Shown here: in pieces, positions 28,542-34,391 of the stretch
Numbering within the stretch: the first letter of the stretch is position 1
Layout of the letters: the number at the start of each line of letters is the position of its first letter
Origin: Emiliania huxleyi CCMP1516
Taxonomy: Eukaryota
DNA: 64,000 nucleotides
Assembly: GCF_000372725.1 (NCBI RefSeq)
Contig: NW_005202427.1
Coordinates: 925,581-989,580 of the forward strand
Direction of reading: 5' to 3'
The notes under the pieces: model-generated
The model's database searches: none
The model's input: the letters and a program-made list of their open reading frames with translations, nothing else
What the model was told of the DNA's origin: nothing
Made by a program: the position numbers and the translations under genes

Positions 28542-29323
28542 ATGCTCGGCCGACTCTCCCGTCTCCGCCCTGCCGCCGCGGCACGCTCCGCGGCCCGCGT
28601 GTCGGCTCTCCGCTCCGCACCGAGGCGCGGCCTCGCGTCAGAAACGTACACCGAGCAGCAGGACAAGACGGGCAGGCGCTGAAGTCTCTCTTCCGAAGAC
28701 AGGAGGTCTCTCTGCCGTGACGCTGCTGACGAGTCGGCGCTTCGCTCGTAGGCCGCTCTCTCCGCACCTGACGATCTACCGGCTTCCCATGATAGCCTAC
28801 TCTTCTATCACCGTCCGCATCACCGGAGGGATCGCCTACGCCTACATCGTCGGCGTGACGGCTCTGGTGTGTGTGTCCACTCGATCGGCCGCTCAAGGCC
28901 CGCGTGCAATCGCCACCAGCGCGCCACTCCCCCATCAGGCGCTGTTTGGTGGGGCGGGGGCGCTGGAGCAGGCGGTACAGAGCCTGCCGGAGGGCGGCGT
29001 GACGCTCCCTGCCGCCAAATTTGCTGTGTCGTGGCCGTTCGTGTACCACTGGGTCGGTTGCGCCCGCCACATGGTGAGTTGGTGACCCCGCTCGCGTCCT
29101 CTACCAATTCCCTCGCTCGACCGGCGCATCCTCTCCGGCCAGAACTCCCTCCCCCATGCACCGCCCACCCCGGCTGCAGGTGTGGGACGTCTTTGATGTC
29201 TCTTCAAAGAGCTTCACAAACTCGTTGATGCGCACGAGCTCCTACGGCATCTTTGCCGCTACCACCGCAATCAGCCTCGGCCTCGCGACCCTCTCCCTCC
29301 CCAAACCCGCCCAGAAGGAGTAG
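28542..29323 (+). CDS. SDH3: Succinate dehydrogenase cytochrome b560 subunit, mitochondrial precursor, multi-exon
   Basis: RPLSPHLTIYR, SSITVRITG, KFAVSWPFVYHWVGCARHM|VWD; Arg/Ala/Ser presequence. Confidence 0.92.
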
Positions 29324-30098
29324 CGACGGGGGGGGAGGGGGGGGAGGGGCAGAGGAGCCCCAATCTAGAGGGCGGGGGAGTGGAGGGACAGTCACCGCCC
29401 CCAAACGGGGGCGGACCGCCGACTAGAACTCGTGCGTGGGTGCGTCGTGGTGCGGTGGCGCCACTCGAGGCTGCCACACCGCGTGTTGATTGGTGTGCCC
29501 CTCGTCTCTCGCCCACCGGTGGCGCGGGCCGCGCCTCTCCCCGCACTGCTGCGGGGTTGGGCCTGGGGGCCGTCCCCTGGCCTGGCCTGGGCTGGGGCCT
29601 GCGCGAATCGGTGACAATATCTTATACAAAGACACGACGAGAGAGATGTCGCGCGGCGCGAGCCGGTGTTCGAGCTTCTCGACTCCGGTCTTTTGCCGCG
29701 TTTTTCCCGTTTGCGTGGATTTTGCGATTCGTTGCACGTCGGAGGGCGGGGAATATGGCACTGGGAGACTTCTCGAAATGCGGCCCGGGGCGGATGCGTA
29801 CTCTACCTCTTGTGGGACGACCATTTGGGACGACGCTGACTGACACCTGACACCCCTGTCGCCCGGCCCCCCCCTTGGCAGCGATCGATGCCGGCGCCGG
29901 ACGCTGCGGCGGCAGGCCCACCACGAGCGGAAGTGTGAAGAGGGAGGAGGGGGAAGAGAATTGAATCTCTATATTATGTGAAAGAAGTGGAACAAGTCGA
30001 GGAGAAGAACGTACCCTTGTGTGGACGTGTCGTTGACGCGGACAGGCGTGGCCCAACGGCAGGACCACAGCGCACAGGGCGAGGACGACGCAGACACC

Positions 30099-31598
30099 AT
30101 GAGTGGCAAGCGCGGACCCAGCAAGCGCAGCCAGCGAGCGGCCGCGGTGCGAGCTCACGCGTTGCGAGCTGACGATACCAGTGCATACACGCTGTCGGCG
30201 GAGTACGATGACGAAGGCGTCTGGTTTTATCAGGCGTACAACGAAGGCATCGCGGACTGGGCGGTGGAACACGGCACCCTCGGCGGCCCGCTCTTCAATA
30301 CGACGAGGATGACTTGGATCAAGCCTTCGTTTGCGTGGATGCTCTATAGATGTGGCTACTCCGCAAAGCACGGCCAGGAGCGCGTGCTGAAGCTCAAGCT
30401 GCCACACAGCGAGGTGGCGTCGCTGCTCGAAGCGTGCGCCTGCACGCACGGTGGCGGCGGGAGCAAGGGCCGTGTTCAGTGGGACCCGGCGCGCGACATC
30501 TACTCAAGCGAGGGAAAGGGCAAGTCCACGGAGCCTCGCAAGATGCTTCGAGAGCGTGCCATCCAGATCGGCCTCTCGCGCGAGCTCTCCGAACGCTTCG
30601 CGCGCTCGATCCTCGCGGTTGTCGACGTGAGTGCCCTCGCGCGTCGCGTCGGCGATGCCCACCAATCGAAGGACGTGCGCGCTGCAATGGAGGTGTTGCG
30701 CGCACAACTACCGACGGAGCGACAGTACATGCCGCGGTGCATTGCGAAGGACCTTGTCCGGCTGCGCTTGATGCAACCAGAGGAGCAGAAGCTCGCTCCT
30801 GGACCGATCCAGGGCCGTGGCGAGGGCGGCGGAGGAGAGTTTGGCGGCGAGGACAGCGGAGGAGATGGCGACGGAGGCGAGGGCGTCGGTGAGGGCGGCG
30901 GCGGTGAGGGTGGCGGCGAGGGCAGCGACGGCGAGGGAACGGCCGAAACGAGCCCGGCACTCAGGTCGTCGGCCGACGGCAGCAGTGGTTCAAAGCTGAG
31001 CAGCCCGAGTTGGCCTCCGCCAGCATGGGAAGCGAAGCGGCTTCTCGCGGCCAAGCAGTTCGTAGCGAAGATGCGGAAGCACCCGCAGTTCAGTGCTGTG
31101 ACAGAGACAGAGGCACACGTCTTCTTCTGGAAGCCTCTCAGTGCGTTTGATCAGTGGTCACCGTGCCGCTTCGAAGTCGATGGGCAGTGGTACAACTGCG
31201 CCGAGCAGTACATGATGTCAGAGAAGGCGCAGCTGTTTGGGGACATGCATACGCGCGCCAAGATCCTCACTGAGCTCGACCCGGCAGTGCAGAAGAGGCT
31301 GGCGAGCGCCAAGGGTACACTACGAAACTTCGACGAGTCCACGTGGGAGAGAGAGTCCTTGCGCATCGTGACGGCAGGCAACCGGGCCAAATTCGAACAG
31401 AATGCCGAGCTCAAGGCCGTGTTGCTCGCCACAGCAGGCAAGCTCCTCGTGGAGGCGAGCCCGATGGATGCCATCTGGGGGATCGGGCTTGGGGTTCAGG
31501 AGGCACTGGAACGAGATCCCGCCACGTGGCCGGGAAAGAACCTACTTGGACAGGCGTTGATGCTCGTGCGGGAGCAGCTCCTCCGCGGAGCCCCATAG
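30099..31598 (+). CDS. DUF4291 - Gly/Glu linker - NADAR (YbiA-like) fusion, intronless
   Basis: YQAYN...RMTWIKPSFAWMLYRCGY..K..QERVL...RVQWDPARD...RAIQIGL; AEQYMMSEKAQLFGD...AKFEQN...LVEASPMDAIWGIG...GKNLLGQALMLVR. Confidence 0.92.
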   Translation: MSGKRGPSKRSQRAAAVRAHALRADDTSAYTLSAEYDDEGVWFYQAYNEGIADWAVEHGTLGGPLFNTTRMTWIKPSFAWMLYRCGYSAKHGQERVLKLKLPHSEVASLLEACACTHGGGGSKGRVQWDPARDIYSSEGKGKSTEPRKMLRERAIQIGLSRELSERFARSILAVVDVSALARRVGDAHQSKDVRAAMEVLRAQLPTERQYMPRCIAKDLVRLRLMQPEEQKLAPGPIQGRGEGGGGEFGGEDSGGDGDGGEGVGEGGGGEGGGEGSDGEGTAETSPALRSSADGSSGSKLSSPSWPPPAWEAKRLLAAKQFVAKMRKHPQFSAVTETEAHVFFWKPLSAFDQWSPCRFEVDGQWYNCAEQYMMSEKAQLFGDMHTRAKILTELDPAVQKRLASAKGTLRNFDESTWERESLRIVTAGNRAKFEQNAELKAVLLATAGKLLVEASPMDAIWGIGLGVQEALERDPATWPGKNLLGQALMLVREQLLRGAP

Positions 31599-31809
31599 CA
31601 GGCTGTTTACAGGCACAGGGCAGCGGTCGCGGTTGCAGCTCAGTGTTCGGCTTGGTCCGCTAGCACGTACCGTAGCACTATAGCAGCAGTGTTCGGGGAG
31701 GGGGTGCGTCTCGGGCCCCAGGTCGAGCCAGGACGGCCTTGAGCTACCCAACGCGGCCAAAGGATATCCACCTCGAGAACCTCGAGAACCAGAAACATGA
31801 ACTAAAAAC

Positions 31810-34391
<2,582 letters not shown>

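Follow-up and report, generated by a model that had tools for sequence, protein, structure and literature searches.

Fusions and gene context link DUF4291, a family with a predicted ADP-ribosyltransferase fold, to nucleic-acid ADP-ribose metabolism

Proteins of the NADAR family strip ADP-ribose marks from guanine in DNA and RNA, and some strip cytosine marks as well (PMC11125620; PMC12945103). They do not remove the marks made by RhsP2 or marks on phosphate ends (PMC11833690). Coupling of a NADAR to a domain with the ADP-ribosyltransferase (ART) fold is known from the DarT1-NADAR (DarTG1) and YarT-YbiA pairs (PMC11543638; PMC11125620). Here we describe a pairing of this kind in the coccolithophore alga Emiliania huxleyi CCMP1516, where one open reading frame (ORF) joins a DUF4291 domain to a NADAR domain. 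The ORF lies at 30099..31598 on the + strand of the window, by which we mean the whole 64,000-nucleotide stretch analysed (contig NW_005202427.1, positions 925,581 to 989,580).

Two further ART-fold proteins serve as points of comparison. RhsP2 (PDB 7rt7) is an active RNA toxin that, unlike DUF4291, is secreted as the tip of an Rhs protein, carries an R-Y-E triad and is bound by an immunity protein, and its mark on the RNA 2'-OH is reversed by PARG, not by NADAR (PMC12340436). Tpt1/KptA lacks the catalytic Glu and is found in NAD/ADP-ribose operons with sirtuin, Macro, ARH and NADAR genes under NrtR, a sensor of ADP-ribose (PMC8120803; PMC2330246; PMC9503650). DUF4291 itself (PF14124), reported from about 4,500 species, has been published as a predicted atypical ART family, with NAD+ binding based on docking only and with a protein substrate and an effector role preferred (Krysinska et al., 2025; PMC12522546). 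That study concerns the same family and, in the portions available, discusses no fusion; the terms NADAR, YbiA, PF08719 and DUF1768, each sought in part of the material, were absent from its main text and two supplements, and its Fig. 8 may show NADAR genes. A DUF4291-NADAR link was not found in print in the literature covered, outside which lie subscription papers and bioRxiv supplements.

The ORF is intronless and open for 499 codons, and its architecture is as an earlier note, made from the sequence alone, had described it. DUF4291 is complete at residues 33-210 (30195..30728, + strand; Pfam E 1.8e-42, profile 3-180 of 180), as is NADAR at residues 342-494 (31122..31580, + strand; E 1.4e-47, profile 1-162 of 163), which scores 162 bits against a Pfam cut-off of 35.1, matches TIGR02464 (E 7.3e-43) and carries the motifs AEQYMM at 368, EASPMDAIWG at 452 and GKNLLG close to the C-terminal end. 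Between them lies an acidic Gly/Glu/Ser linker at residues 232-310 (30792..31028, + strand), with 28 Gly and 14 Asp or Glu among 79 residues. It contains a GC-rich tandem repeat of 12-27 bases at 30856-30937 that is also matched by hundreds of short contigs from other places, and similarity to an unfused NADAR relative (P0195) begins within it, near residue 286. Public gene models divide the ORF into residues 1-213 (P0110) and 325-499 (P0109), which may be why the fusion has been overlooked until now. It is not peculiar to this assembly: intact two-domain proteins are present in other records (P0002, P0119, P0120, P0121), and the cluster to which the nearest protein belongs includes the named entry E. 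huxleyi EMIHUDRAFT_246642.

Single contigs also cross the linker. The longest transcript-type contig, record 9 of transcriptome run X6, covers 30022..31772 including both ORF flanks, and one contig of run X2, which we guess to be RNA, covers 30037-31754; neither has an intron-like gap. The X2 contig is in frame and the X6 contig carries a 5-base deletion at 31011, and contigs of this sort prove neither strand nor expression level. Run X8 was not counted as a bridge, as its two contigs overlap in the linker by only 17 bases. Four RNA runs lack coverage over 29500-29954, which is not proof that the fusion gene is transcribed.

The NADAR half is of the YbiA-subfamily type and is a likely remover of ADP-ribose from bases of RNA or DNA. 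It matches the solved NADAR of P. nicotianae (PDB 8bau; E 2.3e-17) and E. coli YbiA (2b3w; E 7e-12), and alignment to 8bau shows that E369, K376 and E452 preserve all three catalytic residues (E43, K50 and E125, in a numbering that allows a two-residue offset), together with pocket residues D457 and W460. Its last-strand residue, Glu452, is of the YbiA type, in contrast to the BC4488-type NADAR of DarTG1, which has a catalytic Asp. In addition to its fusion to an ART-fold domain, it departs from YbiA-subfamily NADARs at three pocket contacts that are conserved, not strictly defining: Gly78-Arg79 is replaced by A-S with a 3-residue insertion (ASAKG), and the equivalent of Arg93 is Ser. These replacements are common to four unfused relatives in a small protist subclade (P0195, P0196, P0198, P0200). 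A role on riboflavin intermediates was also considered, with which the TIGR02464 name is compatible; neither RibA nor RibD occurs as a fusion or neighbour in the window. At E413 (31335-31337), which aligns with a ribose-binding Asp in the solved NADAR, other isolates have three different changes (G, V, D).

For the DUF4291 half, the ART-like fold that the earlier note had mentioned was borne out as a prediction, in agreement with Krysinska et al. (PMC12522546). The domain model (pLDDT 95) is predicted to adopt an ART fold with a split beta-sheet and, in fold searches, lies closest to the RNA-acting RhsP2. Near-invariant residues comprise Q45, R70, T72, W73, K75, W80, R84, Q127, D129, R153, Q156 and E207, with D129 invariant. 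The published motif mapping (QAY, WIK, AIQ; PMC12522546) falls here on the near-invariant Q45, W73/K75 and Q156; by this mapping Q, W/K and Q stand where ARTs have H/R, Y/S and E, and our own fold searches did not align the structures residue by residue. In one set of bacterial loci the conservation of RMTWIKPS and QWDP is circular because the loci were found by those patterns. In a sequence search with profile A1 no solved structure came up to E 10, and nothing in a viral fold library matched at E 0.001. DUF4291 does not belong to the DarT family of toxins, nor is it a Tpt1/KptA, as it lacks the PTS_2-RNA domain, the N-terminal winged helix and the RH-R-R residues. A SWGExSL motif occurs outside the domain, on either side, in 12 of 142 DUF4291 proteins (P0004-P0007, P0009, P0013-P0015, P0018 and their kin) and is missing from the window protein, as if NADAR had taken the place of that tail.

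The same pairing has been made repeatedly. Among 107 homologues both domains occur in three clusters, namely that of the window protein and two in which NADAR comes first, one of these being from the diatom Thalassiosira minuscula. The three occupy three places in both the DUF4291 and the NADAR tree, and for the DUF4291 halves a topology test rules against a single origin (p-AU 7e-6; 40 rows, quick tree), so that the fusion arose at least three times. A representative search yielded no new fusion among 124 new proteins and has little power, since the three known fusions are not listed there either. An atlas search returned DUF4291 clusters only, and two absences are weak, namely that of NADAR from five DUF4291 loci in a viral contig scan and that of any match in 50,697 phage records.

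The origin of the algal fusion appears to be local. The nearest relatives of each half are unfused (75-82% identity for DUF4291, 61-87% for NADAR); the DUF4291 half lies in a 115-row clade that is set apart from every bacterial locus and in which the named rows are eukaryotic, while the clade of the NADAR half has 9 rows, of which the only one with a source is a eukaryote. G+C content at third codon positions is 0.79 and 0.78 in the two halves, near the 0.80-0.87 of three neighbouring ORFs. The unfused protist-type relatives, the separate clade and the neighbour-like codon composition together indicate a recent, local fusion and not a transferred module, and the suggestion that the module was acquired horizontally is not supported, although each half may have an older bacterial origin.

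Gene context in bacteria ties DUF4291 to ADP-ribose metabolism. The family was present in 20 of 1,050 evenly drawn genomes from four phyla, a sample that leaves out centre genomes. Twenty-one loci were read to about 6 kb on each side, four of them shortened by contig ends and one being a second copy in a centre genome. ADP-ribose or RNA-repair genes lie near 9 of the 21 and near none of the other 12, the neighbours being Tpt1 (8 loci, the most frequent), NrtR (6), NADAR, Macro and Prs-like (5 each), ARH (4), PARG (3) and Sir2 (2). In a set of 80 loci ordered by their similarity to the algal domain, such genes occur at 8, a count that includes an unconfirmed 54-residue Tpt1 fragment in L027, and NADAR occurs at one. 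A NADAR gene immediately follows DUF4291 in L056, L207 and the L159/L131 lineage, and among 74 metagenome loci with NADAR, DUF4291 stands directly upstream of it in two near-identical operons. DUF4291 enters operons of the Tpt1 type and is also fused to Tpt1; its other fusion partners are cytidylyltransferase-like, 2H, Sir2, HIT and phosphatase domains, as well as unrelated ones. At a few loci the neighbours include Rhs and immunity-type genes. This context is a variable kit of protective enzymes and not a fixed two-gene pair.

Several individual loci add detail. The gene order at L209:3848-11222 includes NrtR, Prs-like, a 538-aa gene, NADAR, Tpt1 and DUF4291. We take the 538-aa gene to be NAMPT-like and the genes that follow DUF4291 to be RtcB-like and release-factor-like, so that, partly by these labels, NAD rebuilding and RNA repair fall within a single cluster. 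In a Xenorhabdus genome a Scabin-like ART ORF (L038:3415-3897) lies about 1 kb upstream of DUF4291, and in an E. coli record DUF4291 (L178:3989-4588) lies between apaH and folA, with no eraser gene named adjacent. P0365 joins DUF4291 to a small kinase (AAA_18 match), presumably PhnN-like, and a 2H cyclic phosphodiesterase. Residues 30-130 of P0073 presumably hold a diphtheria-toxin-like ART motif, with no Pfam match at E 0.5. Weak tRNA-binding matches in P0081 (E 0.19) and P0086 (E 0.043) are leads only.

A link between DUF4291 and nucleic-acid ADP-ribose metabolism is therefore well supported by context and extends the published prediction. Repeated fusion to NADAR and residence in operons that sense ADP-ribose make nucleic acids or nucleotides more likely substrates of DUF4291 than proteins. 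The link proposed in the earlier note stands to this extent, through the ART fold, the NADAR catalytic residues, the recurrence and the operons, and it loses the toxin-antitoxin form and the horizontal gain that had been attached to it. The relatives suggest a two-part repair tool over a toxin with its antidote. The explanation we favour, at a little under an even chance, is that the algal protein is an ADP-ribose clean-up protein with two tools, of which DUF4291 is an NAD-using RNA repair enzyme. Two resident protist genes would have fused recently, and their products would work side by side on ADP-ribose damage to nucleic acids. RNA would be bound by the invariant basic residues of DUF4291, which would spend NAD+ on the ribose 2' position or the phosphate of damaged RNA, as the repair enzyme Tpt1 does, while NADAR, judging from family data, would cut ADP-ribose from guanine and perhaps cytosine bases, a mark different from the one that DUF4291 handles. 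The long flexible linker would merely hold the two tools together, and the link would be dispensable.

One alternative is a cognate writer and eraser in one chain, in which DUF4291 would place ADP-ribose on guanine or cytosine of RNA or DNA and the fused NADAR would take it off again, giving a self-controlled toxic or antiviral switch. The three independent fusions, the NADAR gene directly after DUF4291 in the lineages named above, the YarT-YbiA precedent for coupling an ART to a YbiA-type NADAR (PMC11125620), and RhsP2, an active RNA toxin, as the closest fold all speak for such a switch. However, NADAR is near just 5 of the 21 bacterial loci and one of the 80, Tpt1 is a commoner neighbour, two of five DUF4291 genomes searched gave no NADAR match (the completeness of these genomes is not established), the motif positions depart from those of ARTs, and the phage records gave no match. 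If DUF4291 acts like RhsP2, moreover, the fused NADAR could not erase its mark.

Natural alleles bear on the same question. Five different frame-shifting indels in contigs from other isolates, a small sample in which a second allele may be hidden, all fall at residues 208-337, or 27% of the ORF (30720..31109, + strand): an 8-base deletion at 30720, a 7-base deletion near 30727, a 4-base insertion at 30951, a 5-base deletion at 31011 and an 8-base insertion at 31109. Four of the five are matched by stored proteins, some from the same contigs (the short proteins being P0112, P0116, P0117, P0118 and P0378). None affects the DUF4291 core, and two further frame changes, one in P0197 and one at 31554 in an X10 contig of low depth, both excluded as possible assembly errors, fall inside NADAR and hence also outside DUF4291. 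DUF4291 without its fused NADAR thus appears to be tolerated, which weighs against a lethal toxin, although a second allele or another NADAR gene may make up for the loss. On balance the writer-eraser switch is unlikely. The fused toxin-antitoxin of the earlier note is not supported, because the constant coupling of an ART to a cognate eraser that such a pair would show is not seen, no eraser partner being near 12 of 21 bacterial loci, and because the five frameshift alleles uncouple the halves.

We consider it similarly improbable that the fusion is incidental, that is, a repeat-driven shuffle in the Emiliania lineage with a joint that is weakly or not selected and is decaying, the two halves sharing no job. 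The intact window-type fusion is confined to one cluster at 90% identity, the two domains stand apart in relatives at 75-87% identity, a repeat that occurs across the genome underlies the linker, none of the 124 new proteins of the representative search has both domains, and the frameshifts are accompanied by residue changes in 22 of 26 listed single-base variants (a small mixed sample). Against such a shuffle, the same pairing was made independently in two other lineages, with fusions in 3 of 54 long DUF4291 clusters, and DUF4291 and NADAR share bacterial operons far above the roughly 0.3% expected by chance (our own estimate, from one NADAR per about 4 Mb and 12.5 kb read).

Least probable is that DUF4291 has a writer's fold but acts as a protector, whether as an eraser or a decoy, that removes, repairs or binds ADP-ribose attached to RNA through ribose or phosphate, as RhsP2-like toxins leave it: its location among erasers, NAD-salvage and immunity-type genes, the absence of the catalytic Glu that RhsP2 requires, and D129 and E207, which could serve hydrolysis, favour this, but no ART-fold eraser was found in the literature surveyed, the task is already performed by PARG, whose gene occurs in the same operons as DUF4291 (3 of 21 loci), and Glu-less ARTs such as Tpt1 are active transferases.

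The neighbouring genes identified in the window are ordinary eukaryotic genes, and a scan of 69 further window ORFs found no other NAD or defence gene. Upstream, an intron-containing gene at 28780-29321 has pieces in which we see a likeness to a membrane subunit of succinate dehydrogenase; Pfam returned nothing for two short pieces. Just beyond the transcript end, at 31743-31790, is a short ACCTCGAGA repeat that is common to very many contigs from other places (summed depth up to 184,000 in run X3) and is perhaps a dispersed repeat or insertion target. A 2.6-kb insertion at 31808-34388, absent from metagenome contig L086 and flanked by a short duplication, is likely a high-copy mobile element; it ends in (AC)51 and (TTACC)4, reaches a depth of thousands in runs X2 and X3, and contains a 743-aa ORF (31923-34154) with a weak SET-domain match (E 0.07).

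Being rare and polymorphic, the DUF4291-NADAR fusion has limited weight of its own, and the occurrence of fused and unfused natural alleles in one species offers a ready comparison. Should DUF4291 prove to be a protector, the algal fusion would be a two-headed anti-ADP-ribosylation enzyme, with NADAR acting on bases and DUF4291 on the backbone, and the family would be a fourth kind of eraser beside macrodomains, ARH and NADAR, present in thousands of species. More generally, if DUF4291 is found to be active, the gain would be a new enzyme, for RNA repair or for erasure, or else a reversible system of nucleic-acid ADP-ribosylation in major marine algae.
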